64,000 nt of DNA, taken from NCBI GenBank assembly GCA_039024635.1, contig JBCCQA010000021.1, positions 16,942 to 80,941 of the forward strand. The letters are read 5' to 3'. The notes beneath the pieces were generated by a model that was given only the letters and a program-made list of their open reading frames with translations, had not been told where the DNA came from and did not search any database. Position 1 is the first letter of the stretch. Each line of letters starts with the position of its first letter. Below, piece by piece: positions 1 through 19,592 of this stretch. The stretch comes from Myxococcota bacterium. Lineage in GTDB: Bacteria; Myxococcota; Kuafuiibacteriia; Kuafuiibacteriales; Kuafuiibacteriaceae. Made by a program: the position numbers and the translations under genes.

Positions 1-729
1 GAGACCTCGGCCAAGAAGAAGGCGGAAGGAAAGCCAGTGGAGATCGGCGACGTCTGCTTCAAGCGTGGCGGCGTTTTTGCCATGGAGCTCGGTGGCCCCG
101 AAGTGGGTCGAGGCTGCGGGGGGCGCGGCATCATCCATGGCTTCGAGACCTTGGAGAAGCTGGGCTTCAACGACTGGGACTTCGACTTCGTACTCCTCGA
201 CTTCCTGGGCGACGTGGTGTGCGGCGGCTTCGGTCTGCCTATCGCACGGGACATGTGCCAGAAGGTCATCGTCGTCGGCAGCAACGACCTTCAGTCGCTG
301 TACGTGGCCAACAACGTTTGTTCGGCCACACAGTACTTCCGCAAGCTGGGAGGCCACGTCGGCGTGGCGGGCATGGTCGTGAACAAGGACGACGGCACTG
401 GTGAGGCCAAGGCCTTTGCCGAGTCGGTGGGTATCCCGGTCCTAGCGGCCATTCCGGCTGACGAGGACATCCGTCGAAAGAGCGCCAACTACCAAATCGT
501 GGGCGAGCCCGGAGGCAAGTGGGGTCCGCTATTCGAACAGTTGGCGACCAACATTGCCGGCTCTCAGCCGCTTCATCCCAACCCCCTCGATCAGGACGGC
601 CTTCTTGGCCTCTTCGACGGCGACCAAGTCGGACGGGACGTCGTCCTGGAGCCTGCCACCATCGAGGATCTTCAAGGACCCCAAGCCAAAAAACGACGCT
701 CTCTCGAGGTCATCTACGACGACGTATGA
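1..729 (+). CDS. bchX: Chlorophyllide a reductase iron protein subunit X (NifH/BchL-like ATPase), 5'-partial (gene begins upstream of window)
   Basis: Open frame from nt 1. NifH/BchL/BchX-family hallmarks in translation (CGGFGLP, KVIVVGSNDLQSLYVANN). Called X rather than L because it is directly followed by bchY and bchZ and then the puf genes. Confidence 0.75.
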   Translation, partial: ETSAKKKAEGKPVEIGDVCFKRGGVFAMELGGPEVGRGCGGRGIIHGFETLEKLGFNDWDFDFVLLDFLGDVVCGGFGLPIARDMCQKVIVVGSNDLQSLYVANNVCSATQYFRKLGGHVGVAGMVVNKDDGTGEAKAFAESVGIPVLAAIPADEDIRRKSANYQIVGEPGGKWGPLFEQLATNIAGSQPLHPNPLDQDGLLGLFDGDQVGRDVVLEPATIEDLQGPQAKKRRSLEVIYDDV

Positions 730-2237
730 GTACCAAGACGCTACTTCCGATCGTTGAGGAGGGGGGCTGCCACGGCGGCCGGGAACGGCTGCAAGAGGCC
801 GCCAAGGCTGCGGGTCAAAGCGAGCTCTTGAAGCGCTTCGCCGAGGACTATCCGATGGGCCCACATGACCAGCCCCAGAGCATGTGCCCGGCCTTCGGCT
901 CCTTGCGGGTCGGCCTGCGCATGCGTCGGACGGCCACCATTCTCTCTGGCTCGGCCTGTTGCGTCTATGGCCTCACCTTCACCTCTCACTTCTACGGTGC
1001 GCGAAGGACAGTGGGCTACGTCCCCTTCGACTCCGAGACTTTGGTGACGGGGAAGCTGTATGAGGACATCCGCGAGGCCGTGTTCCAACTCGCCGACCCT
1101 GATCGCTACGACGCGATCGTCGTGACCAACCTGTGCGTGCCCACGGCCTCGGGTGTGCCCCTGCGACTGCTCCCGCGCGAGATCAACGGAGTCAGGATCG
1201 TCGGCATCGACGTGCCCGGTTTCGGGGTCCCGACCCACGCCGAAGCCAAGGACGTCCTGGCGGGCGCCATGCTGGCCTATGCTCGTAGTGAAGCCGAAGA
1301 GGGTCCGGTCGCGACACCGAGGGAAGGCATTCAGGAGACGCCCAGCGTCGCTCTGTTGGGGGAGATGTTTCCCGTCGATCCCGTGACCATCGGGCGACTT
1401 GTCGAGCCCCTCGGGCTGGCGGCCGGCCCGGTCGTTCCCACGCGAGAGTGGCGAGAGCAATACGCGGCGCTCGATTGCGTGGTGGCGGCCGCGATCCATC
1501 CCTTCTACCAGGCCACGGTTCGAGAGTTCCGTGCCGCGGGTCGTCCTGTCTTCGGATCGGCCCCGGTGGGGCGCGAAGGTACCGCTGAATGGTTGCGCGC
1601 CTTGGCCGAGCAGGTCGGCGCGCCCGCCACCCAACTGGCAAAAGCTCATGATTCGGCCCTTCCGGCCGTGGAGGGCGCCTTGGCCGCAGCTCCGATCAAG
1701 GGTCGGATGACCTTGTCGGGTTACGAAGGCTCGGAGCTCATCGTGGCCCGGCTGCTGGTGGAGAGCGGCGCGGACCTCCGTTACGTCGGGACCGCGTGTC
1801 CGCGGACCGAGTGGTCGGACGGGGATCGCCAATGGCTCGAGAGCAAGGGCGTTCGGGTGCAGTATCGGGCCTCGCTCGAGCAGGACCTGGCGGCGATGGC
1901 GGAGTTCGAGCCAGAGCTCGTGGTGGGGACCACGCCCGTCGTCCAGAAGGCCAAGGAGCAGGGAACGCCGGCGCTGTACTTCACCAACCTCATTTCCGCC
2001 CGACCCCTGATGGGTGCAGCCGGCGCCGGCTCGGTGGCCAGCGTTCTCGCCGCTGCGCTCTCGAACCGGAGTCGGATGGCCCACATGAAGGCTTTCTTCG
2101 AAGGCGTCGGGACCGAGCATGCGGCGGGCGTTTGGGAGTCGGTTCCCGAAGACCGACCCTCCTTCCGAAAGCGACATCTGGCGAAGGTCGCCAAGTCCAA
2201 CGGGGCCAAGGTGAAGGAGGCGACCAAATGCTCGTGA
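726..2237 (+). CDS. bchY: Chlorophyllide a reductase subunit Y
   Basis: Track ORF 519..2237. Proposed start is ATG at 726 ([14 protein letters not shown]...), which overlaps the bchX stop in an ATGA arrangement and gives ~503 aa. NifD/K-like fold ([12 protein letters not shown]). Sits between bchX and bchZ. Confidence 0.75.
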
Positions 2238-3673
2238 TGGATCACGACCGCGCTGGCGGCTACTGGGGCGCCGTCTACGTGTTCTCAGCCGTCAAAGGCC
2301 TGCAGGTCATCATCGATGGGCCGGTCGGGTGTGAGAACCTGCCGGTCACTTCGGTTCTGCACTACACGGACGGGCTTCCTCCCCACGAGCTGCCAGTCGT
2401 CGTCACTGGCCTCGCTGAAGAGGAGCTGGGCCAGAAAGGGACCGAGGACGCCATGCGACGGGCCCACGAGGTGTTGGATCCCTCTCTACCCAGCGTGGTG
2501 GTCACGGGCTCGATCGCGGAAATGATCGGAGGCGGGGTGACGCCGGAAGGCACCGGCATCCATCGTTTTCTGCCTCGCACCATCGACGAAGATCAGTGGC
2601 AGAGCGCGGACCGGGCTCTGTTCTGGTTGTGGACCCAGTACGGCGCCAAGAACGGGAAGATGCCCAAGGCGAAGAAGGGACCCGAAGGAGCCAAGCCCCG
2701 CGTCAACATCATCGGGCCGGCCTACGGCTACTTCAACACTTGGTCCGACTTGGCCGAGATCCGCAGGCTGGTGGAGGGGCTCGGAGCCGAGGTCAACATG
2801 GTGTTCCCGTTGGGCACCCATCTCGAGGACGTGCCTCGGCTGGTGGACGCCGACGCCAACGTTTGCATGTACCGGGAGTATGGACGGCTCCTATGCGAAG
2901 AGCTGGACCGACCGTACTTTCAAGCGCCGATCGGTCTGCACAGCACGACAGCCTTCCTCGAGTCCCTGGGCGACGCCCTGGGCTTGGAATCGGCCCCCTT
3001 CATCGAGAAGGAGAAGCACACCACCATAAAGCCGGTTTGGGATCTCTGGCGTTCGGTCACCCAGGACTTCTTTGGAACGGCTAGCTTCGGGGTGTCGGCC
3101 AACGAGACCTACACTCGTGGGCTACGCTACTTCTTGGAGGAGGAACTCGGGCTACCCTGCCATTTCGCCTTCGGCCGTAGCGCAGGTGTGAAGCCCGACA
3201 ACGCCACCATTCGAGAGGCCATCCAGAGCAAGCCTCCGCTGATCATCTTCGGGTCTTACAACGAGCGCATGTACATGGCGGAGACCGGCGCCCGTTCGGT
3301 CTACATACCGGCTTCCTTTCCAGGCACGGCCATCCGTCGCCATACCGGTACGCCGTTCATGGGCTATGCGGGCGCGACCTACCTACTGCAGGAGGTGTGC
3401 AATGCGCTGTTCGACGCCCTCTTCCACATCCTTCCTCTTTCCACCGATCTCGACCGGATCGAAGCGACGCCAACCCGCGCCTCTTTGCCCTGGGACGAGG
3501 ACGCGAGATCTGCCCTCGATCGCCTGCTGGAGCAGGTCCCCATATTGACTCGCATCTCGGCTGCCAAGGGTTGGCGAGATGCCATCGAACAAGAGGCCCG
3601 TCGGCGTGGTGACGCCCGAGTCTCGAACGAAGTCCTCGAGGTGGTTCGCGCCACCCGGGAAAGGGTCGCCTAG
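2228..3673 (+). CDS. bchZ: Chlorophyllide a reductase subunit Z
   Basis: Internal start [19 protein letters not shown] at 2228 within track ORF 1796..3673, overlapping the bchY stop by 10 nt; ~481 aa. NifK/BchB-like N-terminus (PVGCENLPV). Position is typical of bchXYZ. Confidence 0.75.
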
Positions 3674-3694
3674 GCCCGTCATGGAGAAATTGCG

Positions 3695-3907
3695 ATGTAC
3701 GAAACGAGTGTAGCGACGACACGAACGAGGAGGATCTCGGAGGAGCGCCAGTACCGCTTGTACTACGCGTTGGGATTCATCACGGCTTTGCCTGTGGTCG
3801 CGCTCTCACGCCTCGTCCCCCGTCGGCGCGGGACGGCGAGGTCGACCGTTCTCGAAGAGACCCATGCCCATGTCCACAACGTCCTGGCCTTCGTCTTCAT
3901 GGCGTGA
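3695..3907 (+). CDS. pufQ: PufQ-like small membrane protein (70 aa)
   Basis: Sits exactly in the bchZ-pufB gap where pufQ lies in Rhodobacter. GGAGA 8 nt upstream of the ATG. One hydrophobic helix followed by RRRG (EexYRLYYALGFITALPVVALSRLVPRRR), which resembles the PufQ core as I remember it (E-x-ALYFSLILIVAVPFALVGWV-x-RERR). Confidence 0.45.
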   Translation: MYETSVATTRTRRISEERQYRLYYALGFITALPVVALSRLVPRRRGTARSTVLEETHAHVHNVLAFVFMA

Positions 3908-3942
3908 GGCAGGAGTCCGACTTCTGTCGGATCCAGGAAAAC

Positions 3943-3964
3943 GTCGTGGGCAGGGGCCCACGAC
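3943..3964 (+). promoter_or_regulatory. Stable GC hairpin (9-bp stem GTCGTGGGC/GCCCACGAC, 4-nt loop) in the pufQ-pufB spacer, ~50 nt upstream of the pufB start
   Basis: A perfect inverted repeat can be read directly in the sequence. Position is analogous to the 5'-UTR stability and processing structures of puf mRNA. Confidence 0.35.
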
Positions 3965-4012
3965 ATCATCCCGCATCGAGAGGTGCGGGGCGCCGAGAGG
4001 TTGAGAATAACA

Positions 4013-4228
4013 ATGAGTGAGAAAGGACTGTTTGCCCAATCGGGTATGACGGAGGCGGAAGCCAAGGAGCTCCACGGGTATTTTACGACGTGGTTTGGCG
4101 TCTATCTGGCGTTCGCCATCATCGCCCACGCGCTGATGTACTTTTGGCGTCCGTGGATCCGACCGACTGAGCGAGCGATGTTGGAAGGGGCCGAGGTCGT
4201 ATCCTCGGTCGTCAACATCCTGACCTAG
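4013..4228 (+). CDS. pufB: Light-harvesting complex 1 beta polypeptide
   Basis: Start at internal ATG 4013 (MSEKGLFAQSGMTEAEAKELHGYF...) of track ORF 3983..4228, with GAGG upstream. Single TM helix containing the conserved His (AIIAHALMYFWRPWI), the classic LH1-beta C-terminus. Confidence 0.85.
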   Translation: MSEKGLFAQSGMTEAEAKELHGYFTTWFGVYLAFAIIAHALMYFWRPWIRPTERAMLEGAEVVSSVVNILT

Positions 4229-4241
4229 GAGACTGCATACC

Positions 4242-4439
4242 ATGTGGAAAGTTTGGATGGTTTTCGATCCGCGCCAGGCCATTGTTGGCTTGTTCACCTT
4301 TTTGGGGATCCTGGCGTTTTCGATTCATTTCCTGCTGCTCAGTACGGACCGGTACAACTGGCTCGACCAGCCGCCGGGAACTGACACGGGCGCGACGGCG
4401 GCAAATCACAACAGTGGCTTGCCGACGGGTTACCGCTGA
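4242..4439 (+). CDS. pufA: Light-harvesting complex 1 alpha polypeptide
   Basis: MWKVWMVFDPRQAIVGLFTFLGILAFSIHFLLLSTDRYNWL matches the LH1-alpha consensus (MWRIWQLFDPRQ...LIHFILLST.RFNWL). GGAG RBS. Lies 13 nt after pufB. Confidence 0.85.
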   Translation: MWKVWMVFDPRQAIVGLFTFLGILAFSIHFLLLSTDRYNWLDQPPGTDTGATAANHNSGLPTGYR

Positions 4440-4448
4440 AAGGCGAGA

Positions 4449-4479
4449 GGTGACGGACGCCTTTCGGGCGTCCGTCGCC
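4449..4479 (+). promoter_or_regulatory. pufA-pufL intercistronic stem-loop (core GACGGACGCC-tttcg-GGCGTCCGTC)
   Basis: Perfect 10-bp GC-rich inverted repeat 10 nt after the pufA stop and before the pufL RBS (GAGGAG). Classic position of the mRNA-stabilising hairpin that sets the LH1:RC transcript ratio in purple bacteria. Confidence 0.5.
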
Positions 4480-4504
4480 TCGTTATGACGAGGAGACTCC
4501 GGTC

Positions 4505-5329
4505 ATGGCTTTGCTGAGCTTCGAAAAAAAATATCGCGTCCGCGGAGGCACGCTGATTGGCGGCGACCTGTTCGACTTTTGGGTTGGCCCCTTTTACGTC
4601 GGCTTCTTTGGCGTAACGACAATCTTCTTCACCGTCCTCGGCACGGCCTTGATCATTTGGGATGGTTCGATGGGACCGACTTGGAATCCCTGGATTCTGA
4701 ACATCGAGCCACCGCCCCTGAAATACGGCTTGGGATTCGCGCCGTTGGAGGAAGGGGGCATCTGGCAATTGGTGACCATCTGCGCGACGGGCGCCTTTAC
4801 GTCTTGGGCCCTTCGGCAGGCCGAGATCGCGCGCAAGTTGGGGATGGGCTACCACATCTCCATCGCCTACGGCACGGCCGTCTTTGCCTACGTCACGCTG
4901 GTCATCTTCAGACCACTACTCTTGGGCGCTTGGGGCCACGGCTTTCCGTACGGTGTGTTTCCGCACTTGGACTGGGTGTCGAACGTCGGCTACCAGTACC
5001 TGCACTTCCACTACAACCCAGCCCACATGATCGCGGTCAGCTTCTTCTTCACGACCACTTTCGCGTTGGCCCTTCACGGTGGCTTGATTCTGTCCACGGT
5101 CAACCCGATGGCAGGCGAGCCGGTTCGTTGCGCCGAGCACGAAGACAACTTCTTCCGTGACTTCATCGGCTACTCCATCGGCGCCGTCGGCATTCATCGC
5201 CTTGGGTTGTTCCTCGCCTTGAGCGCGGGGGTCTGGAGCGCAATCTGCATCATCATCAGCGGTCCGCTTTGGACCCGAGGTTGGCCCGAGTGGTGGGTCT
5301 GGTGGCTCGAGCTGCCGATTTGGAGTTGA
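4505..5329 (+). CDS. pufL: Photosynthetic reaction centre L subunit
   Basis: 274 aa. [37 protein letters not shown]-terminus with five TM helices and conserved His ligands, typical PufL. Confidence 0.9.
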
Positions 5330-5333
5330 GACA

Positions 5334-6308
5334 ATGATGAGGGAGTATCAAAACATCTTCACCCAGATTCAGGTGAAGGGTCCGTCGGATATCGTTCCGA
5401 TCGAAGAGGGCATCTATCCGCGCTTCGACAAGAAGATGGTGATCCACTTGCTGGGGCGGATCGGCAGCGCGCAGATTGGTCAGGTATATCTCGGCTGGTT
5501 CGGCATCACCTCCGGGCTGTGCTTCTTGATCGCCTTCGAGATCATCGGCCTCAACATGTGGGCCTCGGTGAACTGGGACCCCATCGAGTTTGTGCGACAG
5601 CTTCCATGGCTAGCGCTCGAACCCCCACCGCCCTCGAACGGTCTCAAATTCCCGCCCATGAATGCCGGAGGTTGGTGGCTCATGGCCGGCTTCTTCCTGA
5701 CCGCTTCTCTCATCCTCTGGTGGTTCCGCACCTATCGACGGGCGAGGGCGCTCGGGATGGGCACCGACGTCGCTTGGGCCTTCCTGGCAGCCATTTGGCT
5801 CTACTTGGTCTTGGGCTTCTTTCGACCCATCGCGATGGGAACCTGGGGCGAGGCCGTGCCTTTCGGGCTGTTCCCTCATCTGGATTGGACGGCGGCCTTT
5901 TCGCTCCGCTACGGCAACCTGTTCTACAATCCCTTCCACGCGCTCTCCATCGTGTTCCTCTACGGCTCGACACTGTTGTTCGCGATGCATGGCGCAACGG
6001 TGCTTGCGCTTGGACACCTAGGCGGTGAGCGGGAGATCGGTCAGATTACGGACCCTGGAACGGCTGCCGAACGCTCGGCTTTGTTCTGGCGCTGGTGCAT
6101 GGGCTTCAACGCGACCTTCGAGTCCATTCATCGCTGGGCTTGGTGGTTTGCCGTCTTGTGCTCAGTGACCGGGGGTATAGGAATTCTGTTGACGGGGACG
6201 GTGGTCGACAACTGGTACCTTTGGGCCGTCAAGCACGGTTTCGCCATTGAGTATCCGACCGTCTATCCAGTCCTCCCCGACCCGGGTCTGACCGAGGTGA
6301 CGCAATGA
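5334..6308 (+). CDS. pufM: Photosynthetic reaction centre M subunit
   Basis: 324 aa. [16 protein letters not shown] N-terminus, typical PufM. It is a separate gene from pufL, i.e. the proteobacterial-type arrangement rather than the fused L-M gene. Confidence 0.9.
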
Positions 6309-7477
6309 AGCCACTGAAGATCTCGATGAAGGAATTCTACATCCTGCTCGGCGGGGCCCTCTCCGTGGTGGTGACGGTCCTGATCTGGAACTTCTCTGCA
6401 CCACCGATCAGCGTGGTGCAGGTCGGTCCTGACGGCGCGGCGATGGAGATCGTCATCAACGAGGAGACCTTGGCGGAAATTGAGAGGGTCAACAACGAGT
6501 ACCCGCCGTCCATCCCGCCGGCGAGTCCGGACGGACCGAGGGCCTCGGAGGTGTATCAGAACGTCCAAGTCCTCGGTGACCTGTCGACGGGTCAGTTCAC
6601 CCGTTTGATGCTCGCCATTACCCAGTGGGTGGCGCCCAAGGAAGGACCGGAGAGCCAGGTCGGGTGCAACTACTGCCACAACGCCGCCAACATGGCTTCG
6701 GATGAAAAGTACGCGAAGCATGTTGCACGGCGGATGATTCAGATGACCCAGCACATCAACGCGGAATGGAAGTCCCACGTTGGGAACGTGGGCGCGACCT
6801 GCTACACTTGCCACCGCGGTCAGCCGGTGCCGTCCTACGTTTGGTACAAAGAGCCGCCTCACGCGCAGGAGGCTCGAGGAGCTGGCGGCCGAGCGCAGCA
6901 GAATCGGGCCAGCGCGGCGGTGGGTCTCGCTTCGCTTCCAGGCAACGTGTTCGAGACGTATCTGCTGGAGGACAACAACATCCGGGTGATCGGCCACACA
7001 CCGCTACCGACCGGCAACAGCTCTTCCATCAAGCAGACGGAGTGGACCTACGGGCTGATGATGCACTTCTCGAACGCGCTCGGCGTAAACTGCACCTACT
7101 GTCACAACAGTCGAGCGATGGCGATGTGGAACCAAAGCCCTCCGGCTCGGGCCAAGGCTTGGTACGCGATCCGGATGTTGCGTAGCGTGAACGGCGAGTA
7201 CACGGCGCCGTTGGTGGATCGCTATCCGGATTACCGCCTGGGTCCGACGGGGGACGCGCCCAAGGCCAACTGCTATACCTGTCACCAGGGGGCGTATCAG
7301 CCGATGCTGGGCTACAAGATGTTGGAGGACTACCCGTCGCTCTCGGCCCCCGACTACTACGCCGAGTACGCCAACGAGTACCGGAAGAAGGAGAAGGCCA
7401 AAGCGGAGGCGGCGGCCGCGCTAGAGGCGCAGGAAGAGGCGGGCGAGGACGGCGAGGCAGCGCCGGTGGCCAACTGA
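6305..7477 (+). CDS. pufC: Reaction-centre tetrahaem cytochrome c subunit
   Basis: ATGA overlap with the pufM stop. Four CxxCH motifs (CNYCH, CYTCH, CTYCH, CYTCH). N-terminal hydrophobic anchor. Unusual ~45-aa acidic Ala/Glu/Lys-rich C-terminal tail. Confidence 0.85.
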
Positions 7478-7502
7478 GTCTGGGCGGGCGACCGGGTGAC
7501 AA

Positions 7503-7535
7503 GGGCGGAGTCTTTCGACTCCGCCCTTTTTTTTT
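7503..7535 (+). terminator. Rho-independent terminator (GGGCGGAGTC-tttc-GACTCCGCCC followed by T9)
   Basis: Perfect 10-bp GC stem plus a run of nine T residues, 26 nt after the pufC stop. Confidence 0.75.
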
Positions 7536-7769
7536 GCCTCGGGTGGCCGATGAATGACCTGGTCGGATGTGGCCGATTTGGGGCCGAATTCGTGGTCCGG
7601 TTCGGGTTCGAGTGCCGAAGTTCGAATCGTGCCTCTACGCCGGGGAATGCGGCATTTTGTGCGAAATTTCCTTAGTGCTGATGCGCTTGCAGGCCCCAAT
7701 GGCCGGTGCTAGCTTCCGCGACGCTTTGGGCGGATCCCTGGGCTCCACTCAAGCGAGAAGGGTCGAATC

Positions 7770-8426
7770 GTGAGTCATACCTTCCCTCGTTGGACGAATA
7801 AGATTCCAACCATCGTCGCCCTGGCGGTTCCGGTCATCGGAGTCGGGGTCGTCTTCGGCATGCTGTACTGGTTTTCCCCGTACTTTACCGACGTGGGGTA
7901 CATGCCGACGCAGCCCGTGCCGTACAGCCACAAGCTTCACGCGGGCAAGTTGGGCATCGATTGCCGTTACTGTCACAACACGGTCGAGAAGGCGGCCTAC
8001 GCCGCAGTTCCGCCCGCTGAAACGTGCATGAACTGCCATGCTTATGTGAAGAAGAACAGCGAGAAGCTGGCGCTGGTTCGACAATCCTACGAGACCGGCG
8101 AATCCATACCGTGGATCAAGGTTCACCAGCTCCCTGACTATTCCTACTTCGCCCATGACGTCCATGTGACGGCGGGCGTCGGTTGTGAGACCTGTCACGG
8201 GCGGATCGACCAGATGGAGAAGGTCGCCCTGCATTCGCCTCTCTCCATGGGTTGGTGTCTGCGCTGCCACCGCAACCCGGAGCCCAACCTTCGTCCCATC
8301 TCGGAGATCACGACTATGGGTTGGGAGGACTCGCCCGAGGCTGCCGAATACGACTGGGCCTCCGATCCCCACCGAATCCGCAACAACTTGCAGCCTCCTC
8401 AAAACTGCTCGGGGTGCCACCGATGA
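7770..8426 (+). CDS. actA: Alternative complex III subunit ActA (membrane-anchored pentahaem cytochrome c)
   Basis: GTG start at 7770. N-terminal TM helix. Five CxxCH motifs (CRYCH, CMNCH, CETCH, CLRCH, CSGCH). First gene of the six-gene act operon. Confidence 0.8.
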   Translation: MSHTFPRWTNKIPTIVALAVPVIGVGVVFGMLYWFSPYFTDVGYMPTQPVPYSHKLHAGKLGIDCRYCHNTVEKAAYAAVPPAETCMNCHAYVKKNSEKLALVRQSYETGESIPWIKVHQLPDYSYFAHDVHVTAGVGCETCHGRIDQMEKVALHSPLSMGWCLRCHRNPEPNLRPISEITTMGWEDSPEAAEYDWASDPHRIRNNLQPPQNCSGCHR

Positions 8427-11281
8427 CCACTGAGAACGAGACTCTGAACAAGCCGGACATCCCGAGCCGCAGGACCTTCCTTTCGGCCATGGGTGCGACC
8501 GTGGCGTCACTCAACACCGCGGCGTGCATCCGTAAGCCCTACGAGAAGATTCTGCCCTTCGGGCAGCGCCCAGAGGACCGGGTCCCCGGTCGGCCCGAGT
8601 ATTACGCTACGGCGGCGTCCGTCGGCGCTAGCGTGGTGGGCCTTCGCGTCCGGTCCAACGACGGCCGCCCGACCTTCATCGGTTCCAACAAGCAGCACCC
8701 GACCAGCAAGGGCGGGACGCCGGCTTGGGCCCAAGCTACGGTCCTCGAGCTCTACGATCCGGACCGAAGCCGAACCGCTCTGATGGACGGTGCATCCGTC
8801 GACCCCGCAGGCGCTGCCGGCGCCATCCGAGCCATGGGCAAGGCGATTCGCGACGCCGCAGGCCGAGGCCTTGCGATCCTGACCGACGAGACGCCCTCGC
8901 CGACGCTGTTCCGGTTGATGAAGACGCTCAAGGAGCAGTTCCCCGAGGCTCAGCAGTTTCGTCATGACGAGATGGGTGAGGCCAACGGCCAAGCCGGTGC
9001 AGCCATGGCCGGCATTCCGAACGCCAGCTTCTCGCTCAACGAGACGCCCGCCGTCATCGCCATTTTCGATGCCGATCCCATGGGAACCGAGGGTGACACC
9101 TGCGCCTTCGACCATGCCTTTGCTTCGGGTCGGGACCCCGATGCACCCCGTAAGAACCGCCTCTACGTCGTCGAACCGTACGTTTCGTTGACCGGCTCGA
9201 ACGCCGACCACCGCAAGGCGGTAAAGCCGAGCGAGGTCCCCGCGGTGCTGGCGGCTTTGGCTTCCGAGCTCAACAGCCATGGCTACGAGCTGCCAAAGCT
9301 TGCGGGGGCCGACGCCGCCTCAGACAAGTTCGTCAAGGCTCTCGCCAAGGACATGGCCAAGAACCAAGGCGTCTCGATGGTCATGGTCGGCGAGCGACAG
9401 CCCCCGCAGGTCCATGCTCTCGCCCACATGGTGAATGCGGCCTTGGGTGCCTACACCAAGCTCGGGGCCTGGACCCAGAGCGACGCTCCTGAGTTTCAGA
9501 CTGCGGACGAGCTGGTGGCGGGCATGAAGGCCGGTACCTTCAAGTATGTCGTCTCGCTGAGCGGGAACCCCGCCCACTCCATCCCTGGCTTCGCTGATGC
9601 GGCCGAAAAGGCCCAGGTGCTGCACCTAGGGAGCTACCTCGACGAGACCGCTCGGATCGCCAAACTGCACGTCCCGAAGAGCCACTACCTGGAAGCGTGG
9701 GGTGACCTCGTGGGGCGTGATGGCTCCGTGGCCATCCAGCAGCCGCTCATCGCGCCACTCCACGAATCCAAGTCAGCCATCGAGGTGCTGGCCACCATTC
9801 TCGGTTCCAAAGAGAGCGGCTACGAGCAGGTGCGAGACACCCACCGAAGCCACGTGGCGTCCGGTGATTTCGAGAAGTCCTGGCAGGTCTGGCTGCACGA
9901 TGGCGTCGTCCAGAGTCACCCGGTTCAGCGCGTCGAGCCGGCCATTCAGGCGGCCCAGATCGAGGGCTATCCAAAGGCCGGTTCGAGCGATCTCGAGGCC
10001 GCTTTCATTCGAGACCTGACGGTCTTGGACGGGCGCTTCGCCAACAGCCCCTGGCTCCAGGAGCTCCCTGACCCCGTCACCAAGTTGTCTTGGGACAACG
10101 CTCTGCTCTTGAGCCCCGACACGGCCGAGAAGCTCGGCCTCAAGAATGAGGACATGGCGACGGTCACCTTGAACGGAGCGTCTCTCGACCTTCCCGTTTG
10201 GATCCAGCCGGGCACCGCGGACGACGTGGCCGTCCTTCCCTTGGGCTACGGCCGCGAAGGGGTAGGGCAGTACGCCAGCAGCGGCTTCGATGTGTCGGGG
10301 CTCCGACCTGTCGACGGCACATGGTCGGCGAGCGGCGTCCAGATCAAGAAGACCCCGGGAAGCTATCGCCTCGCGTGTCAGCAGCTCGAGAGCGACCAGT
10401 ACGGACGGCCCATCGTTCGTGAGGCTTCCCAGACGGACTTCACGGCCGACGAGAACTTCGTCGCGAAATTCGAGGTCATGAAACCGGAGCACATCGACTC
10501 TCTCTTGTGGGAGGAGCCTGTGCTTCCCTGGGCCAAGGGCGAGCAGCATCAGTGGGCTGTTTCGATCGACCTCAACAAATGCTCGGGATGCTCCGCCTGT
10601 GTCGTGGCCTGCCAGGCTGAGAACAATATTCCGTGGGTTGGCAAGAGCGAGGTCCTGAAGGGCCGCGAAATGCACTGGATGAAGATCGACCGATACTTCA
10701 AGGACAACAACGGACAGTTCGAGGTGAAGTATCAGCCCATGGGCTGTGCTCAGTGTGAAACCGCTCCGTGCGAGAACGTTTGTCCCGTAGGTGCATCGGC
10801 TCACAGCCCGGAGGGCCTCAACGACATGGCCTACAACCGGTGCATTGGAACGCGCTACTGCGCCAACAACTGCCCGTACAAGGTCCGTAGGTTCAACTTC
10901 TTTCACTACACCGTGCGAAACGACGGCGAGTACGGGATGGGCATCACCATGCAGCGCAACCCGGACGTCACGGTTCGCTACCGCGGGGTCATGGAGAAGT
11001 GCACCTACTGTGTGCAGCGGATCCAGCGAGCCAAGATCTACCAGAAGGTGAATGGAGGCGGCGACACGAAGGTTAAAGATGGCGCCATCGTGACTGCCTG
11101 CGAGGAGGCTTGCGGGACGGGGGCCATGGTCTTCGGCAACATGGCCGACCCCGAGTCTCGGGTCGCCAAGATGAAGAACAATCCGAGGAACTATGCCGTA
11201 CTGGCCGAAATCAACATCCGGCCCCGGACGACGTATCTCGCCAAGCTGACGAACCCCAACCCTGAGTTGGCGGAAGGGTGA
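8423..11281 (+). CDS. actB: Alternative complex III subunit ActB (molybdopterin-oxidoreductase-like domain fused to a 4x[4Fe-4S] ferredoxin domain)
   Basis: Start at ATG 8423 (ATGA overlap with the actA stop), MTTENETLNKPDIPSRRTFLSAMGA twin-arginine signal, ~952 aa. C-terminal Cys clusters CSGCSACVVAC, CAQCETAPCENVCP, CIGTRYCANNCP, CTYCVQR...CEEACGTGA. The track ORF start at 8252 lies inside actA. Confidence 0.8.
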   Translation: MTTENETLNKPDIPSRRTFLSAMGATVASLNTAACIRKPYEKILPFGQRPEDRVPGRPEYYATAASVGASVVGLRVRSNDGRPTFIGSNKQHPTSKGGTPAWAQATVLELYDPDRSRTALMDGASVDPAGAAGAIRAMGKAIRDAAGRGLAILTDETPSPTLFRLMKTLKEQFPEAQQFRHDEMGEANGQAGAAMAGIPNASFSLNETPAVIAIFDADPMGTEGDTCAFDHAFASGRDPDAPRKNRLYVVEPYVSLTGSNADHRKAVKPSEVPAVLAALASELNSHGYELPKLAGADAASDKFVKALAKDMAKNQGVSMVMVGERQPPQVHALAHMVNAALGAYTKLGAWTQSDAPEFQTADELVAGMKAGTFKYVVSLSGNPAHSIPGFADAAEKAQVLHLGSYLDETARIAKLHVPKSHYLEAWGDLVGRDGSVAIQQPLIAPLHESKSAIEVLATILGSKESGYEQVRDTHRSHVASGDFEKSWQVWLHDGVVQSHPVQRVEPAIQAAQIEGYPKAGSSDLEAAFIRDLTVLDGRFANSPWLQELPDPVTKLSWDNALLLSPDTAEKLGLKNEDMATVTLNGASLDLPVWIQPGTADDVAVLPLGYGREGVGQYASSGFDVSGLRPVDGTWSASGVQIKKTPGSYRLACQQLESDQYGRPIVREASQTDFTADENFVAKFEVMKPEHIDSLLWEEPVLPWAKGEQHQWAVSIDLNKCSGCSACVVACQAENNIPWVGKSEVLKGREMHWMKIDRYFKDNNGQFEVKYQPMGCAQCETAPCENVCPVGASAHSPEGLNDMAYNRCIGTRYCANNCPYKVRRFNFFHYTVRNDGEYGMGITMQRNPDVTVRYRGVMEKCTYCVQRIQRAKIYQKVNGGGDTKVKDGAIVTACEEACGTGAMVFGNMADPESRVAKMKNNPRNYAVLAEINIRPRTTYLAKLTNPNPELAEG

Positions 11282-11287
11282 CCCATC

Positions 11288-12682
11288 ATGGATATGCGTT
11301 CGAACGTTGACCTCGTCGATCGGCGCCCTGCGCTCGTCGACCCCCACGAAGACTTCCAAGCGATCACGAAGCGTGTGGCGGCGCCCATCGAGTGGAAGAC
11401 GCCCATCGGTTGGTGGCTCTTCTTCATACCTTCGGTTCTCCTGGCCGCCAGCTACGGCGGGAGCGTCGCTTATCTGGTTTGGGAAGGAACCGGCATCTGG
11501 GGCATCAATAATCCCGTTTTCTGGGGTTGGGCCATCGTCAACTTTGTCTTCTGGGTCGGTATTGGCCACGCAGGCACGCTAATCTCGGCCGTTCTCTTCC
11601 TCTTTCGACAGAAGTGGCGCACCAGCATCAACCGCTTCTCAGAGGCCATGACGCTCTTCGCCGTGGCCTGCGCCCTTTCATTTCCAACCATTCACGTCGG
11701 TCGAATCTGGCTTCTGTACTGGGTCGCCCCAGTTCCGAACTCCATGTTGGCTTGGCCCAACTTCCGGAGTCCTCTCCTCTGGGATGTTTTCGCTGTGAGC
11801 ATCTACGGCTCGGTTTCGCTGTTGTTCTGGTACGTGGGCCTCATCCCCGACCTGGCCACGATGCGGGACCGCGTCACCTCCAAGCTCGGAAAGTTCGCTT
11901 ACGGTATCTTTGCTCTTGGCTGGCGAGGGTCTACCCGACACTGGCGCCACTACGAGGTGGCCTACATGCTGCTCGCCGGTCTCGCCACTCCCCTGGTGCT
12001 GTCGGTGCACTCTGTGGTGTCATTCGACTTCGCCGTGTCCCAGCTGCCTGGCTGGCACACCACCATCTTCCCACCCTACTTTGTTGCGGGTGCCATCTTC
12101 TCCGGCTTCGGCATGGTTCTGACGCTGATGCTCATCGCTCGCGTCATCTTCAAGATGGAGAACATCGTCACGATGCATCACATCGACAACATGGCGAAGG
12201 TCGTACTCTTGACCGGGTCCATCGTCGGCTACGCCTACGCGATGGAGTTCTTCGTGGCTTGGTACAGCGGTAGCCAGTACGAGCTCTTCGCCTTCATCAA
12301 TCGGGCGACCGGTCCTTACGCGGGCGCCTACTGGACGATGGTCACCTGCAACGTGGTCATTCCCCAGATTCTGTGGTTCCAGAAGATGCGTCACAACATC
12401 GTACTGCTCTTCATCATCTCGATTTTCGTGAACATCGGAATGTGGTTCGAGCGCTACGTTATCGTCATTACGCTTACCCGAGACTTTCTCCCCTCGAGCT
12501 GGGGCTACTACAGCCCGACTTTCTGGGACGTGTCATGCTTCCTGGGTAGCTTTGGCCTCTTCTTCACTCTGTTCTGCCTATTCGTCCGCTTCCTTCCCAT
12601 GATCGCCATGGCCGAAGTGAAGACGGTCGTGCCTGAAGCCGATCCTCACCCCGAAGAGGCGGCGACTGGAGGTGCCCATTGA
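11288..12682 (+). CDS. actC: Alternative complex III subunit ActC (NrfD/PsrC-like polytopic quinol-interacting membrane subunit)
   Basis: 464 aa, ~10 TM helices. Follows actB by 7 nt. Confidence 0.8.
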
Positions 12683-13212
12683 GCAACAAGACCTTCGGCG
12701 TCCTCGCCGAATTCGACACCCCCGCCTCCGTCTTTGAGGCCTGTGAGAAGGTCCGAGACGCCAAGTTCTCGAGGTGGGACTCCCACACGCCCTTCCCAGT
12801 GCATGGGCTGGAGTTTGCAATGGGCATGGGCCGCTCTCGGCTGCCCATCTTCGTGTTCGCTTGCGGCATCAGTGGGGCGTCTGGAGCGATGCTTCTCCAA
12901 TGGTGGACCTCTGCCGTCGACTACCCGATGATCATCGCCGCCAAGCCATTCTTCTCATGGCAGGCCTTCATCCCGGTCACCTTCGAGGCGATGGTTCTGT
13001 TCTCGGCGGTCTCTGCCGTGCTGGGGATGCTGTTTCTCAACCGTCTTCCTCGCTGGCACCATCCGTTGCTGACCTCTGAGCGTTTCAAGTCAGCCTCGGA
13101 TCACAAGTTCTTCATTTCGATCGAGGCGAGTGACCCGCAGTTCGACCCGGAGAAGACACCCGAGTTTCTCCATTCCCTGGGCGCGACCTACGTCGAGTTG
13201 GTGGAAGACTGA
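12679..13212 (+). CDS. actD: Alternative complex III subunit ActD
   Basis: 177 aa. Overlaps the actC stop. Small membrane protein in the canonical actD position. Confidence 0.6.
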
Positions 13213-13215
13213 ACG

Positions 13216-13845
13216 ATGAAGCACCTAAGTCTCATGATTGCGACGGGGGCGCTCGCCACGGCTTGCCAGGGCGGGACCTTTCCTCAGCCCCCGATTCACC
13301 TGAACCAGAACATGGACTTCCAGAAGAGGATCGAGCCCCAGGAAGAGAATCCGTACACGGGAACCATGGGCAATCGGAAGCCCGTCGAGGGTACGGTTCG
13401 GATGGGCGGACTTACCATCGACGACCACCTTCACCGAGGGAAGATCGATGGCGAGCTCGTGGAAGAACTCCCCGACGTCGACGAGAAAGGGATGCCCATA
13501 GAAATGAACGAGGCTTTCCTCGCTCGGGGTCAGGAGCGCTACAACGTCTATTGCCAGCCCTGCCACGCCCAGACGGGCTCAGGAAAAGGGCTTGTGTCGG
13601 TCAACTCGGGCGGCAACATACAGCCCCCCGCTCTTTACAATGAACGGCTGCTGACCATGCCCATCGGGCACTTCTACAACGTCATCACCAACGGGGTGAA
13701 CGGCAACATGCCCCCTTACCGCGCGCAGATCCCGGTCGGTGACCGGTGGGCCATTGCGGCTTACGTACGCGTTCTTCAGCGTGCGGCCTTTGCCGACGTT
13801 GGCGCCGTTCCGGGCGACGTCGCGAAAGAGAAAGGCTGGAACTGA
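13216..13845 (+). CDS. actE: Alternative complex III subunit ActE (monohaem cytochrome c lipoprotein)
   Basis: Signal peptide with lipobox (LATAC). Single CQPCH haem motif. 209 aa. Confidence 0.75.
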   Translation: MKHLSLMIATGALATACQGGTFPQPPIHLNQNMDFQKRIEPQEENPYTGTMGNRKPVEGTVRMGGLTIDDHLHRGKIDGELVEELPDVDEKGMPIEMNEAFLARGQERYNVYCQPCHAQTGSGKGLVSVNSGGNIQPPALYNERLLTMPIGHFYNVITNGVNGNMPPYRAQIPVGDRWAIAAYVRVLQRAAFADVGAVPGDVAKEKGWN

Positions 13846-13848
13846 GTC

Positions 13849-15285
13849 ATGGGTCATCATCGGCTGCGGGCCATCCCTCCGGACGTCAAGACACGCTTCG
13901 AAGGTAGCTCGCCTTGGCGAAAATACCCCTTCATCTTCTGGGGCGTTGGGGTCGTCTGTCTGATGGCTGCCTTTGCCTTTGGCCAGGGCGGCGCCGAGGA
14001 GCACGCCTCCATCGGCTTTGAATCTGTCGCCCTGGCCGACCATCACGACGACGGCGAAGCCCATGGCCACGAAGCCCATCACGGCGGCGACGCGCATGAC
14101 GGCGACAAGGCCCATCACGACCACGATGGCCACGGGGCGAAGGGAGCGCACGGGAGCGGTGGCGGTCATGGAGACGAAGACCACGGCGACGATGGAGGCC
14201 ACGGCCACCATCATGGTGAGCTGACCCGCTTTTCATTTAGCTACCTTACGGCGTTCATGTACGGACTGAGCCTGGCCCTCGGAGGCCTGTTCTTCGTACT
14301 TGTTCAGTTCCTCGCGCGTGCCGGATGGAGCGTAGTCGTGCGCCGCATCGCCGAGAACGTCATGGCCACGCTCCCACTCTTCGGCTTGCTCTTCATTCCT
14401 GTGTACCTAGGGCTGTCGAGTACCCACTTCCACTGGTGGCACTTCGAAGGGCACGACCCCCTGCTCGACCACAAGGCGCCCTACCTGGATGAGAACTTCT
14501 TTATCCTCCGAGCCATCTTCTACATTGTAGTCTGGGTCGGCCTTGCCTTCTTCTTCTGGCGAAACTCGACCGCTCAGGACAACTCCGGTGAGCATGACCT
14601 GACCCGACGCATGCAGAACCTATCCCCGCTCGGGATGATCCTCTTCGCCCTCACGACGACCTTTGCTGCCGTGGATTGGATGAAGTCCATGGACCCGCAC
14701 TGGTTCTCTACGATGTTCGGGGTCTACTACTTCGCGGGTTGCGTCGTGGGTATCTTTGCCACTTTGTCCGTATTGACCATCTGGTTGCAGTCCTCGGGCT
14801 ACGTCAAAACGATCATCAACGCTGAGCACTACCACGACATCGGTAAGCTCCTGTTCGGCTTCGTGGTCTTCTGGACCTACATCACGTTCAGCCAGTATTT
14901 CCTGATTTGGTACGCCAACATTCCAGAGGAGACGCTCTGGTACTACCACCGCACGACTCATGGGTGGGAGAACGTGGGTGTGGCCATCATGATCGGCCAC
15001 TTCTTCATTCCGTTCTTCTTCCTGTTGCCCCGCGGCATCAAGCGGAACCCGAAGACCTTGATCCTTGGCGCCCTTTGGCTACTCGGCATTCACTACCTGG
15101 ACCTCTACTACGTCGTGATGCCCATTCTGGACGAGAGCCCCCACTTCACCATCGTGGACCCTTTGTGCCTGGTTGGCATCGTGTGTTTGTTTTTGGGCAC
15201 GTTCGCATTCGTGGCCGGTCGGTCGGATCTCGTTCCGGTCAAGGACCCAAGGCTTCCGGAGTCACTAGCCTTCCAGAACCTCTGA
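13849..15285 (+). CDS. actF: Alternative complex III subunit ActF (second NrfD-like membrane subunit), carrying an unusual ~60-aa His/Asp/Gly-rich insert near the N-terminus
   Basis: 478 aa polytopic membrane protein paralogous to ActC. Residues ~65-125 read ADHHDDGEAHGHEAHHGGDAHDGDKAHHDHDGHGAKGAHGSGGGHGDEDHGDDGGHGHHHGE. Confidence 0.75.
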   Translation: MGHHRLRAIPPDVKTRFEGSSPWRKYPFIFWGVGVVCLMAAFAFGQGGAEEHASIGFESVALADHHDDGEAHGHEAHHGGDAHDGDKAHHDHDGHGAKGAHGSGGGHGDEDHGDDGGHGHHHGELTRFSFSYLTAFMYGLSLALGGLFFVLVQFLARAGWSVVVRRIAENVMATLPLFGLLFIPVYLGLSSTHFHWWHFEGHDPLLDHKAPYLDENFFILRAIFYIVVWVGLAFFFWRNSTAQDNSGEHDLTRRMQNLSPLGMILFALTTTFAAVDWMKSMDPHWFSTMFGVYYFAGCVVGIFATLSVLTIWLQSSGYVKTIINAEHYHDIGKLLFGFVVFWTYITFSQYFLIWYANIPEETLWYYHRTTHGWENVGVAIMIGHFFIPFFFLLPRGIKRNPKTLILGALWLLGIHYLDLYYVVMPILDESPHFTIVDPLCLVGIVCLFLGTFAFVAGRSDLVPVKDPRLPESLAFQNL

Positions 15286-15350
15286 GGTCGTTTGGTGCGT
15301 TTGAATTGCGAAACCCGCCAGCCAGGACAAGATCACGCAAAGGATTCGAC

Positions 15351-15917
15351 ATGAAGTTTTCGCCCCCACAAACTCTCGCCCTGGTCTCGCTCGCCGCCCT
15401 AGCGGCGTGCGGCATTCCGGACGTGAGCCTGTTTCCCATCGACCCTTGGCCGGAGAAGGACGCCTACCTGGAGAACCAAAAAACGGCGTTGACCGGTTAC
15501 GACAGGGTCGAGGAGACGAAGAAGTACCGCATTCCTGTGAAGGATGCCTTGGCCATGGTGGCCAAGGATGCGGATGGCCTGAAGCCTCTGGTGAGGCTCA
15601 AGACCGACTTCTCCGAGATGACCCAGGTGGAGCGTGGCGAGCGCCACTTCAATATCACCTACGCGTGTGCCGGCTGCCACGGTTTCAACGGTCAGCGTAA
15701 GGTGGGCCCGCACCTGAACAAGCGCTGGGGTGGCGAGGCTCCGCTCGAGGGTGGAACGGTCGTCGCCTTCAACGACGAGTACTTCAAAGAGTCGGTCCTG
15801 TACTCCACGAAGAAGATCGCTCGAGGCTATCCGGCTGCGATGCCCTACTTCGCCGAGCTCATGTCCGAAGAGGACTACGAAGACATCAAAGCCTACGTGA
15901 TGACCTACAACCAGTAG
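15351..15917 (+). CDS. Monohaem class I c-type cytochrome, lipoprotein (candidate periplasmic electron carrier)
   Basis: Start at internal ATG 15351 (MKFSPPQTLALVSLAALAACG lipobox). CAGCH haem motif plus distal Met (AAMPYF). The track ORF 14907..15917 upstream part overlaps actF and is read-through. Confidence 0.7.
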   Translation: MKFSPPQTLALVSLAALAACGIPDVSLFPIDPWPEKDAYLENQKTALTGYDRVEETKKYRIPVKDALAMVAKDADGLKPLVRLKTDFSEMTQVERGERHFNITYACAGCHGFNGQRKVGPHLNKRWGGEAPLEGGTVVAFNDEYFKESVLYSTKKIARGYPAAMPYFAELMSEEDYEDIKAYVMTYNQ

Positions 15918-15940
15918 GCGCTGGTATCGCGGAAACAGCG

Positions 15941-15976
15941 GAAGCCCGGAGGGACCCCCCTTCCGGGCTTCTTTTC
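15941..15976. terminator. Intrinsic terminator, probably bidirectional (GAAGCCCGGA ... TCCGGGCTTC + TTTTCTG)
   Basis: 10-bp GC stem, extendable through GGG/CCC, followed by a T-run 24 nt after the cytochrome c stop. The convergent minus-strand gene ends at 15985. Confidence 0.5.
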
Positions 15977-15984
15977 TGCCGCCC

Positions 15985-17451: not shown

Positions 17452-17754
17452 TCAGGGCTCGGCCATGAGCTCGTCACAGTCTGCGCTGTCGCAGTCCTGA
17501 GAGCAATCGCTGCCCGTGCAGGAGTAGCGGCAGGTGGAGCCCGGTTCGCAGCTCTGGTCGCACCCGCCGCCGGAACAGGTGAAGGTGCAAAGCGCTTCCT
17601 CTTCGCAGAGCTGGAGGCAGCCCCCACCGTCGCAGGTGAAGCTGCATTCGTCTCCGATATCGCAGCGCTGTTCGCAGCTACCCTCGGTACAGTCTTCTTC
17701 GACTGTCCCGCAGCTACACAAGAGCAGTCCAAGGACGAGCGTCTTCCAGTTCAT
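17452..17754 (-). CDS. Small secreted Cys-rich repeat lipoprotein (100 aa, 22 Cys)
   Basis: Signal peptide with lipobox (LLCSCG). Repeated module C-(S/T)-F-T-C-x-G-G-G-C-x-Q-x-C appears twice, plus further CxxxC pairs. Acidic. Confidence 0.5.
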   Translation of the reverse strand: MNWKTLVLGLLLCSCGTVEEDCTEGSCEQRCDIGDECSFTCDGGGCLQLCEEEALCTFTCSGGGCDQSCEPGSTCRYSCTGSDCSQDCDSADCDELMAEP

Positions 17755-17853
17755 GTCTCGCTCCTAGCCCAGCATTGAGGTGGGTTCCAAGAGGACCGCG
17801 ATCACGCACGCGAGGGGTGTAGGGTCGTGTGTGGTCGCTCCTCTCCTTCGAGC

Positions 17854-18843: not shown

Positions 18844-19076
18844 GAGAGTGTGGGCAGAAATGCGAGCTCAGGGCCGCTGAAGGCTGGGTGGTGGGGAGTC
18901 ATCGACAGGCCTCCGCCAAGCGCTTCAGGCCACGTTTTAGCCCGTGCCCGGCAGGCTCTGAGCTTCGCCGTCCTGGAGGGTGTGGGGGGGGAGGACGCCA
19001 TCGGCGCCATCCATCATGGGCCAAAGGGCCATGCAAGTGGAAGCGCTAGACCGAGGTGTGGCTCTAGAGGAGCGCT

Positions 19077-19328: not shown

Positions 19329-19592
19329 TCAGGAGTCGGCTGAGAAGCCATCGATCCCCAGCCTCGTCTTCCACCACCAGGACCCGAAGGGGTTTGCCGT
19401 TGGGATTCGCGTCGGGACCCGATGGCTGGGTCTATGTCGTACTGCCGACGCTCTGAAACAGGAGAGGAAGCCGGACATCGAAGCGCGTCCCCGAGCCTAT
19501 CTTGCCGTCACCTTCGATGACTCCTCCGTGCCTACGGCTGGTCAGCTGTGCCGCCTGGTGCGACGCCTTCCTGCCACACGGTCCGACCAGGC

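Follow-up and report, generated by a model that had tools for sequence, protein, structure and literature searches.

How does a reaction centre (RC) that arrives by horizontal transfer become connected to the electron transport of its new host? A transferred RC is useless without a compatible quinol oxidase and donor, and a locus in an uncultured member of the Myxococcota suggests one solution to the wiring. The locus lies in a 64-kb stretch of DNA (positions 16,942 to 80,941 of contig JBCCQA010000021.1, assembly GCA_039024635.1), referred to here as the window, from a metagenome-assembled genome (MAG) of the same species as GCA_039186575.1. A puf operon of purple-bacterial type is there followed, on the same strand, by six genes for an alternative complex III (ACIII) and then by the gene of a tethered monohaem cytochrome c, designated CytX. 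The reading favoured here, with a probability of about 0.7, is that the respiratory ACIII of the host was recruited to a horizontally acquired purple-type complex of RC and light-harvesting complex 1 (RC-LH1), with a light-driven cycle that would run via CytX, or a HiPIP, to PufC, the RC-bound tetrahaem cytochrome. Li et al. 2023 (PMC10576062) used MAGs to describe phototrophic Myxococcota, and the type-II RC and photosynthesis gene cluster (PGC) of these organisms have been inferred to be a horizontal transfer from Proteobacteria (PMC10576062; PMC11194577).

The genes at issue, with coordinates refined with the gene calls of an identical locus (L087), are these:

4013..4228, + strand: pufB, LH1 beta (Pfam LHC, E 9e-8; ATG at 4013; a 71-aa call in L087)
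4242..4439, + strand: pufA, LH1 alpha (Pfam LHC, E 1.9e-13)
4505..5329, + strand: pufL (Pfam Photo_RC, E 1.9e-93)
5337..6308, + strand: pufM, a gene separate from pufL (Pfam Photo_RC, E 2.6e-101; product 100% identical to P0001, 'Myxococcota bacterium')
6305..7477, + strand: pufC, RC-bound tetrahaem cytochrome with an N-terminal membrane anchor (Pfam CytoC_RC, E 4.8e-132; four CxxCH)
7770..8426, + strand: actA, pentahaem cytochrome c with an N-terminal transmembrane helix (five CxxCH; 6f0k_A of the Rhodothermus marinus ACIII, E 2.7e-73)
8423..11281, + strand: actB, fused molybdopterin-like and Fe-S subunit (Tat signal SRRTFL; 6f0k_B, E 1.4e-222, also 6lod_B, 8k9e_B and 6btm_B)
11288..12682, + strand: actC, NrfD-type quinol-interacting membrane subunit (Pfam NrfD; 6f0k_C, E 1.2e-195)
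12679..13212, + strand: actD (Pfam ActD, PF11821, E 5.8e-66)
13216..13845, + strand: actE, monohaem lipoprotein cytochrome c (lipobox ATAC, one CQPCH; 6f0k_E, E 7.2e-42)
13849..15285, + strand: actF, second NrfD-like membrane subunit with a Gly/His/Asp-rich insert (6f0k_F, E 1.1e-83)
15351..15917, + strand: cytX, 188-aa lipoprotein monohaem cytochrome c, the proposed carrier from ACIII to the RC (lipobox LAAC, one CAGCH)

Pfam, solved-structure matches and direct reading of the translations agree that bchXYZ, a small open reading frame (ORF), pufBALMC, a terminator, a 292-bp spacer, actABCDEF and cytX all lie on the + strand and, apart from the bchX cut by the window edge, are intact. A first-pass annotation made from the letters alone had given this content and order, with separate L and M genes, the terminator and the single strand, and in all of this it was right. 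The puf order is that of purple bacteria, pufB-pufA-pufL-pufM-pufC, with L and M separate and a tetrahaem PufC. The best matches of PufM in the PDB are RC M chains (9m8m_M and 7o0u_M), and its identity with many PufM sequences of Proteobacteria is ~75–79%. Each of the six Act subunits matches a chain of solved ACIII structures or the ActD model of Pfam. By gene content actABCDEF is an alternative complex III, and quinol:cytochrome c oxidoreductase activity is predicted for it. ActB has four Cys-cluster motifs with the Pfam domains Fer4 and Molydop_binding. Gaps within the operon are −4 to +6 bp, and 65 bp separate actF from cytX. Among solved structures the Rhodothermus marinus complex gives the best match to ActA, B, C, E and F; the chains of Roseiflexus and Chloroflexus also match and rank behind it. 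[The ActF insert, at 13984–14223, consists of ~80 aa that are almost all Gly, His or Asp (21 G, 19 H, 12 D) and stands between hydrophobic segments 1 and 2. L089 has a shorter version of it, and L001, L003, L005, L134 and the respiratory L091 have none; these loci are described below. Its composition suggests that it could be a metal-binding loop.]

Is the adjacency of puf and act peculiar to one genome? The order bchC-XYZ, small ORF, pufBALMC, actABCDEF and carrier gene recurs in five further lineages, and PufM pairwise identity among the six is 73–91%. The five are:

L089, from GCA_964477875.1: puf-act order kept
L001/L002, from GCA_050331295.1 and a Logan assembly: puf-act order kept
L003/L004, from Myxococcales LLY-WYZ-16_1 and a JGI metagenome: puf-act order kept
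L005/L006, from GCA_036788295.1 and Logan: puf-act order kept
L134, from Logan, whose PufM is P0068 of a 'Deltaproteobacteria' MAG: puf-act order kept, with a HiPIP tail

The locus of the window species is itself represented in three assemblies, its ActB being identical to P0121 (GCA_039186575.1 and GCA_038746945.1). The flanks beyond the carrier gene vary between lineages (Wzy/GT2, TerC, DUF6918, crtBIE). In L134 only 21 bp separate pufC from actA, and the act genes stand between puf and crtB-crtI-crtE-pucC/bchP-like genes, i.e. inside the PGC. The background for comparison was 80 ACIII loci from reference genomes of many phyla, found by an ActB scan (39–44% identity among the matches listed), and 42 metagenome loci found with ActA. 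Among the genome matches listed, pufL or pufM occurs within 10 kb of none of the 80 and coxI within 10 kb of 49. None of the metagenome loci has puf genes; where they extend past actF, 11 of 14 continue with SCO1 and/or cox genes. Since the linkage recurs in five other lineages and in 0 of the 122 other ACIII loci sampled (the genome part again among the matches listed), it is not due to chance. The arrangement in the myxococcotal locus L091 is SCO1, a cytochrome c, actABCDEF, a gene x, SCO1, coxB, coxA and coxC. [At 1–152 of L001 (GCA_050331295.1) a caa3-type COX2 gene, encoding COX2 and a cytochrome c domain, adjoins the PGC on its crtC side; oxidase genes stay close to the photosynthesis cluster in that lineage.]

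What stands after actF is a further constant. In all six lineages the tail encodes a tethered carrier, CytX or, in L134, a HiPIP. CytX is built of a lipoprotein signal, a linker of ~70 aa and a class-I monohaem domain. Its best PDB match is 1w2l_A (E 1.7e-11), a 99-residue chain deposited as 'cytochrome oxidase subunit II', which we take to be the cytochrome c domain of the Rhodothermus caa3 oxidase; the second is membrane-anchored cytochrome c_y, a weak match (E 0.005). Within 5.8 billion proteins, as far as a word-based prefilter allows, the CytX family amounts to 25 clusters, the few named ones all from Myxococcota. Outside the family there is a single match, to a COX2 that carries a fused cytochrome c domain (36% identity over 94 residues, pairwise E 1e-20). 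The longest contigs of several CytX clusters equal in size those of puf-linked ActB clusters (e.g. 263,354; 52,115; 258,979; 1,410,921; 120,935). These similarities make CytX a relative of the cytochrome c domain in subunit II of caa3 oxidase. With its lipobox anchor, linker and monohaem domain it may work like cytochrome c_y, to which its similarity is weak.

The tail of L134 (13669–14366) consists of actF, a 108-aa membrane ORF that is possibly ActG-like, and then, in the position of CytX, the HiPIP. The latter has a Tat signal (TRRHAL), a lipobox (LVAC) and a CANC...CGGC...C pattern, with a borderline Pfam HIPIP score (22.7 bits against a cutoff of 22). CytX and the HiPIP alike are predicted to be high-potential carriers. 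In purple bacteria tetrahaem RCs are known to receive electrons from HiPIPs and from membrane-bound or otherwise tethered c-type cytochromes, and the work on Rhodothermus and Flavobacterium has the cytochrome c domain of caa3 as the natural acceptor of respiratory ACIII. Because the one property is that of an ACIII acceptor and the other that of a tetrahaem-RC donor, it is plausible that a free, tethered caa3-type cytochrome c domain serves as an adaptor between ACIII and PufC.

From where did the ACIII come? In an ActB search of the same 5.8 billion proteins there is a break in the ranking. P0122–P0139 score 1038–1544 bits at 50–68% identity; matches below the break reach ≤940 bits and ≤48% identity, and the named ones among them are mostly 'Myxococcota', 'Myxococcales' and 'Deltaproteobacteria'. 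A neighbour-joining tree of ActB places every known puf-linked copy in one clade of 18 sequences (bootstrap 100/100). Its sister, with the same support, is P0138/P0139, of which P0138 belongs to a locus (L090) with SCO1 upstream and without puf. The next named relatives are mostly from Myxococcota, and the surrounding branches include the cox-linked L091. Since ActB groups in this way with relatives that, where named, are mostly myxococcotal, two of them being SCO1- or cox-linked, the puf-linked ACIII is a specialised offshoot of what is apparently the respiratory ACIII of the host phylum. An origin in Chloroflexota, or arrival together with the proteobacterial PGC, was considered and rejected, the nearest named relatives being mostly myxococcotal ACIIIs. 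[L090, the closest ACIII locus without puf, has an odd association for such a locus: its flanking radical-SAM/SPASM and Usp-domain proteins (932–2263 and 17706–20522) both carry PCP_red, the C-terminal domain of protochlorophyllide reductase.]

Once together, the two sets of genes diverged in step. Across the six lineages the mean identity of PufL and PufM correlates with that of ActA, B, C, D and F (Pearson r 0.97, Spearman 0.90), and of the 720 permutations of an exact Mantel test none but the identity itself attains the observed r. The first-pass annotation had spoken of a chimeric or laterally assembled photosystem and had advised comparing the donor lineages of Puf and Act. The comparison has ActB with mostly myxococcotal relatives and PufM closest to proteobacterial PufM; this proteobacterial type of PufM, with the co-diverging linkage, the monophyly of the puf-linked ACIII and the clade-specific tethered carrier, gives good support to the proposal, in which ACIII would occupy the position held by bc1 in purple bacteria.

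The cycle that the genes suggest would run as follows. Light would drive quinone reduction by RC-LH1, and the quinol would be oxidised by ACIII at ActC. Electrons would then pass via the Fe-S clusters of ActB and the haems of ActA and ActE to CytX at the periplasmic face. CytX, or the HiPIP, would re-reduce the RC-bound tetrahaem PufC and this in turn the special pair, closing a proton-motive cycle; expression of the act genes would presumably be related to light. As to history, the ancestor may have been a respiratory actABCDEF-SCO1-coxBAC supercluster. The phototrophic clade would have come to lack the oxidase genes at the tail and to have a free tethered carrier there instead, CytX in most lineages and a HiPIP in one.

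Several observations weigh against this reading. The trees are neighbour-joining only, and all the organisms involved are uncultured MAGs. In Polyangiaceae bacterium LLY-WYZ-14_1 (L136, 2336–6468) pufL-pufM-pufC is followed directly by a HiPIP gene, without act genes next to puf, so phototrophy in the phylum as a whole does not depend on the linkage; the idea that it is universal in phototrophic Myxococcota was rejected. [The PufC of L136, of 495 aa, also matches an OmpA domain. Those of L003 and L004 are 544 and 551 aa, against 350–390 aa elsewhere, with a long C-terminal extension.] The ratio dN/dS, 0.04–0.20 in all 13 genes between the window and L089, is approximate, dS being ~1 and so close to saturation. 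Further, the spacer between pufC and actA contains two features:

7501..7536, + strand: intrinsic terminator after pufC (a 12-bp stem at 7501–7528 with 8 G-C pairs, a 4-nt loop, then a T-run)
7686..7715, + strand: promoter-like motif upstream of actA (CTTGCA, 17 nt, TGCTAGCTT); conserved, putative function

A comparable hairpin and T-run is visible in L089. CTTGCA and, 17–18 nt further on, GGTGCTAnnnT do not vary between the window, L089, L001 and L003. They lie ~50 nt upstream of actA and are consistent with a −35 element and an extended −10 promoter. [At the E. coli consensus threshold no sigma-70 promoter was reported in 3300–16500, the actA motif included.] Because of the terminator and the conserved motif, puf and act of the window are probably separate transcription units, possibly with some read-through. 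Nor is there a PpsR-type site upstream of act: the PpsR/CrtJ palindrome TGT-N12-ACA does not occur in 1–16500 of the window, and in relatives it is present only at crt or bchC positions. The earlier description of the two operons as joined head-to-tail holds for their adjacency; as transcription units they look like two. In L134, given the short pufC-actA gap and the position inside the PGC, the act genes are very probably co-transcribed with puf.

These features of the spacer are what would be expected if the ACIII were purely respiratory and lay beside the PGC for historical reasons, with CytX feeding an oxidase encoded elsewhere and the cycle using another complex, e.g. bc1. The resemblance of CytX to an oxidase-subunit cytochrome c domain, the COX2 gene adjoining the PGC in L001 and the normally respiratory, cox-linked character of ACIII also fit such an arrangement. 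It is nevertheless unlikely. Six lineages keep the linkage despite their different flanks, and in L134 it lies inside the PGC with a gap of only 21 bp; the puf-linked copies are a fully supported clade that has lost the SCO1-cox tail; divergence of Act tracks that of PufLM; and the tail carrier of L134 has been swapped for a HiPIP, a classic RC donor. Closer to the favoured reading, and a variant of it rather than its opposite, is a dual role, in which the ACIII would be the only quinol:cytochrome c oxidoreductase of the cell and would serve respiration and the light cycle both, with CytX as the branch point, so that the module would not be 'dedicated'. In Rhodobacter, cytochrome c_y, the next-best solved-structure match of CytX, serves the RC as well as the cbb3 oxidase. 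Cox genes near the PGC in L001 point the same way, as does the view that phototrophic Myxococcota are aerobic anoxygenic phototrophs (PMC12654162). Nothing contradicts it directly, though a separate cox-linked ACIII, as in L090 and L091 or in the Chloroflexus Cp/Cr pair (PMC3150298), would argue for specialisation. A dual role is thus a substantial possibility, at a little short of even odds.

Two more sceptical explanations fare worse. All the sequences come from metagenome assemblies, and a chimeric contig or faulty binning could in principle have brought together puf and act genes of different organisms. The junction turns up independently in assemblies from NCBI, JGI, ENA and Logan, made from different samples, which excludes a chimeric contig; G+C is uniform across it and the puf and act halves co-diverge, so that an artefact is scarcely credible. 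Decay of puf and/or act to a non-functional relic, which the first-pass annotation had named as an outcome that would undo its proposal, is very improbable and was not borne out. The ORFs are full length, their haem, Fe-S, Tat and lipobox motifs are intact, and the dN/dS values given above indicate purifying selection. Li et al. (PMC10576062) also report in situ expression of myxococcotal photosynthesis genes.

Recruitment of the host ACIII to the acquired RC therefore remains preferred. It could be taken further, to a portable and nearly complete cassette for cyclic photophosphorylation in one clade of Myxococcota, with a dedicated photosynthetic ACIII paralogue in the PGC, separate from the respiratory complex III of the cell, and, as a new carrier to the purple-type RC, a CytX carved from the cytochrome c domain of caa3 subunit II. 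This would be a second independent recruitment of ACIII after that in Chloroflexota and the first type-II PGC with a complex III of its own. This extension is tentative and the odds are against it. Such a cassette might, speculatively, reflect the running of a proteobacterial RC on a menaquinone pool.

How does the locus compare with known systems? As in Chloroflexus aurantiacus and Roseiflexus castenholzii, the partner of a type-II RC with tetrahaem PufC in cyclic flow is ACIII and not bc1, here as proposed from the genes. Chloroflexus has distinct photosynthetic (Cp) and cox-adjacent respiratory (Cr) forms of ACIII (PMC3150298), a parallel to the puf-linked and cox-linked clades described above. 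The genetics are otherwise. In Cfl. aurantiacus the genes are scattered and ACIII lies away from the RC genes, with pufLM at Caur_1051–1052, pufC and light-harvesting genes at Caur_2089–2091, the Cp ACIII at Caur_0621–0627 and the auracyanins elsewhere (PMC3150298), whereas here they are contiguous. The carrier there is the copper protein auracyanin, in contrast to a lipoprotein cytochrome c or HiPIP; Pfam scans of the called ORFs of the locus and the rest of the window gave no member of a copper-protein family (auracyanin, type-1 copper). The RC here is of the purple-bacterial RC-LH1 type, in a bch/crt/puf cluster, and unlike the ACIII of Chloroflexota, ActB groups with mostly myxococcotal named ActBs and has its best solved match in Rhodothermus. 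The likening of the locus to Chloroflexus in the first-pass annotation was right in function and wrong in genetics. It took ACIII right next to the RC to be the Chloroflexus-type arrangement, which the scattered genes contradict, and it ascribed a fused pufLM to Chloroflexus; pufL and pufM are separate in Cfl. aurantiacus and the fusion is that of Roseiflexus (PMC3150298).

With the respiratory ACIII-caa3 superclusters of Rhodothermus marinus, Flavobacterium johnsoniae and most Myxococcota (e.g. L091) the locus shares the six subunits in the same order, and these are its nearest relatives in sequence. It differs in that the SCO1-coxB-coxA-coxC tail is absent, with a stand-alone tethered carrier in its place, and in that the operon is behind pufC. 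Directly downstream of actF the window has no SCO1/SenC and no coxB-coxA-coxC; cytX is there, and after it convergent Wzy-like and GT2 genes. The resemblance to the purple-bacterial puf operon extends to bchCXYZ, the small ORF and pufBALMC with separate L and M, tetrahaem PufC and both LH1 alpha and beta, as well as to the proposed use of a tethered cytochrome c or HiPIP as RC donor. Purple bacteria use bc1 with cytochrome c2, c_y or HiPIP; here, by contrast, no pet genes are visible in the window, an ACIII operon is attached to puf and the host is a myxococcote. The electron-transport genes of the heliobacterial PGC include those of a cytochrome bc complex. That PGC, in carrying electron-transport genes (PMC7143216), is a precedent for a complex III within a PGC, though the RC there is type I, the complex is of bc type, the hosts are Firmicutes and the proteins are unrelated.

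The phototrophic Myxococcota of Li et al. 2023 are the same organisms, and L003 (LLY-WYZ-16_1) is one of their MAGs. The main text of that paper (PMC10576062) makes no mention of cytochromes, ACIII, bc1, quinol or pufC, and the supplementary files examined contain no complex III terms. In the literature searched on ACIII, Myxococcota and phototrophy, including later papers citing phototrophic Myxococcota, no description of the puf-act linkage was found. That lineages which gain RCs by transfer plug them into a complex III already present is a published idea (PMC6664022). ACIII-dependent phototrophy in Chloroflexota and PGCs with electron-transport genes in heliobacteria (PMC7143216) are also already known. 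Three things are new: the fixed attachment of a complex III operon to a puf operon of purple type, the monophyly of the puf-linked ACIIIs of Myxococcota, and a carrier, CytX, that is specific to the clade. The locus suggests that the host's respiratory ACIII was copied or recruited and stripped of its oxidase partner, that a free tethered carrier was added and that the whole became attached to the RC genes for the long term. If true, ACIII-based photosynthesis reaches beyond Chloroflexota. In pufBALMC, actABCDEF and cytX there is a concrete gene set for testing a bc1-independent cycle, and act genes adjoining pufC, as well as CytX, could be markers for phototrophic Myxococcota.

The remaining features of the locus are the following:

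37..729, + strand: 3′ part of bchX, the window starting inside the gene (Pfam Fer4_NifH, E 1.6e-63; full-length 333-aa gene in L087)
726..2237, + strand: bchY, chlorophyllide reductase subunit (Pfam Oxidored_nitro, E 2e-46; a 503-aa call in L087)
2228..3673, + strand: bchZ (Pfam Oxidored_nitro and PCP_red; a 481-aa call in L087)
3695..3907, + strand: small membrane ORF in the pufQ position, 70 aa, a single transmembrane segment (Pfam PufQ, E 0.015, 15.8 bits, below the cutoff of 22.1)
15941..15975, no strand assigned: terminator-like hairpin and T-run between cytX and the convergent Wzy-like gene (direct reading; unreported by the consensus scan)

The bchXYZ genes were part of the first-pass description, which began at 3695; they are present, and lie upstream of that position. 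The small ORF had there been called pufQ-like. Its position and size fit that name, and its Pfam score stays below threshold. Among its orthologues, present in all six lineages, that of L005 scores 12.5 bits against the same cutoff, and the other four tested have no PufQ match. The orthologues conserve G-F-x3-LP-V-V-A and a nearly invariant C-terminus, (I/L)LAFVFMA; we know of no PufQ with an LAFVFMA C-terminus. Its dN/dS (window vs L089) is 0.16. From these features it could be a distinct small assembly factor and not a true PufQ.

Downstream of cytX are convergent Wzy-like, GT2 glycosyltransferase and metallo-beta-lactamase-fold genes. These are not related to photosynthesis, and the locus is therefore the edge of the PGC. 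The PGC continues upstream, beyond the start of the window, and puhA (RC-H) is not in the 64 kb. The ORFs scanned in the other 48 kb include no gene for cytochrome b or a Rieske protein, no cox gene and no additional gene for photosynthesis, and an Rfam scan of the whole window gave nothing at gathering thresholds. G+C is ~62% across the window, without a compositional break at the puf-act locus. Large ORFs without any Pfam match and with high third-position G+C are found, all on the − strand, at 31823–34042 (739 aa), 45284–47248 (314 + 319 aa) and 59093–62074 (993 aa).

Two other groups of genes in the window deserve mention. The region 20597–23871, at a distance of 5 kb from the act operon, encodes in this order a PAS-domain sigma-54 activator, a DUF1641 protein and a Pyr_redox_2 flavoprotein. 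The flavoprotein may be a sulfide:quinone or a type-II NADH:quinone oxidoreductase, and so a potential input of electrons to the quinone pool. At 29655–30953 there is a gene for a Na+-dependent bicarbonate transporter of the SbtA type (Pfam Sbt_1, E 5e-117), with a P-II-like gene after it. The pair resembles cyanobacterial SbtA/SbtB and hints at inorganic-carbon uptake in this putative phototroph.

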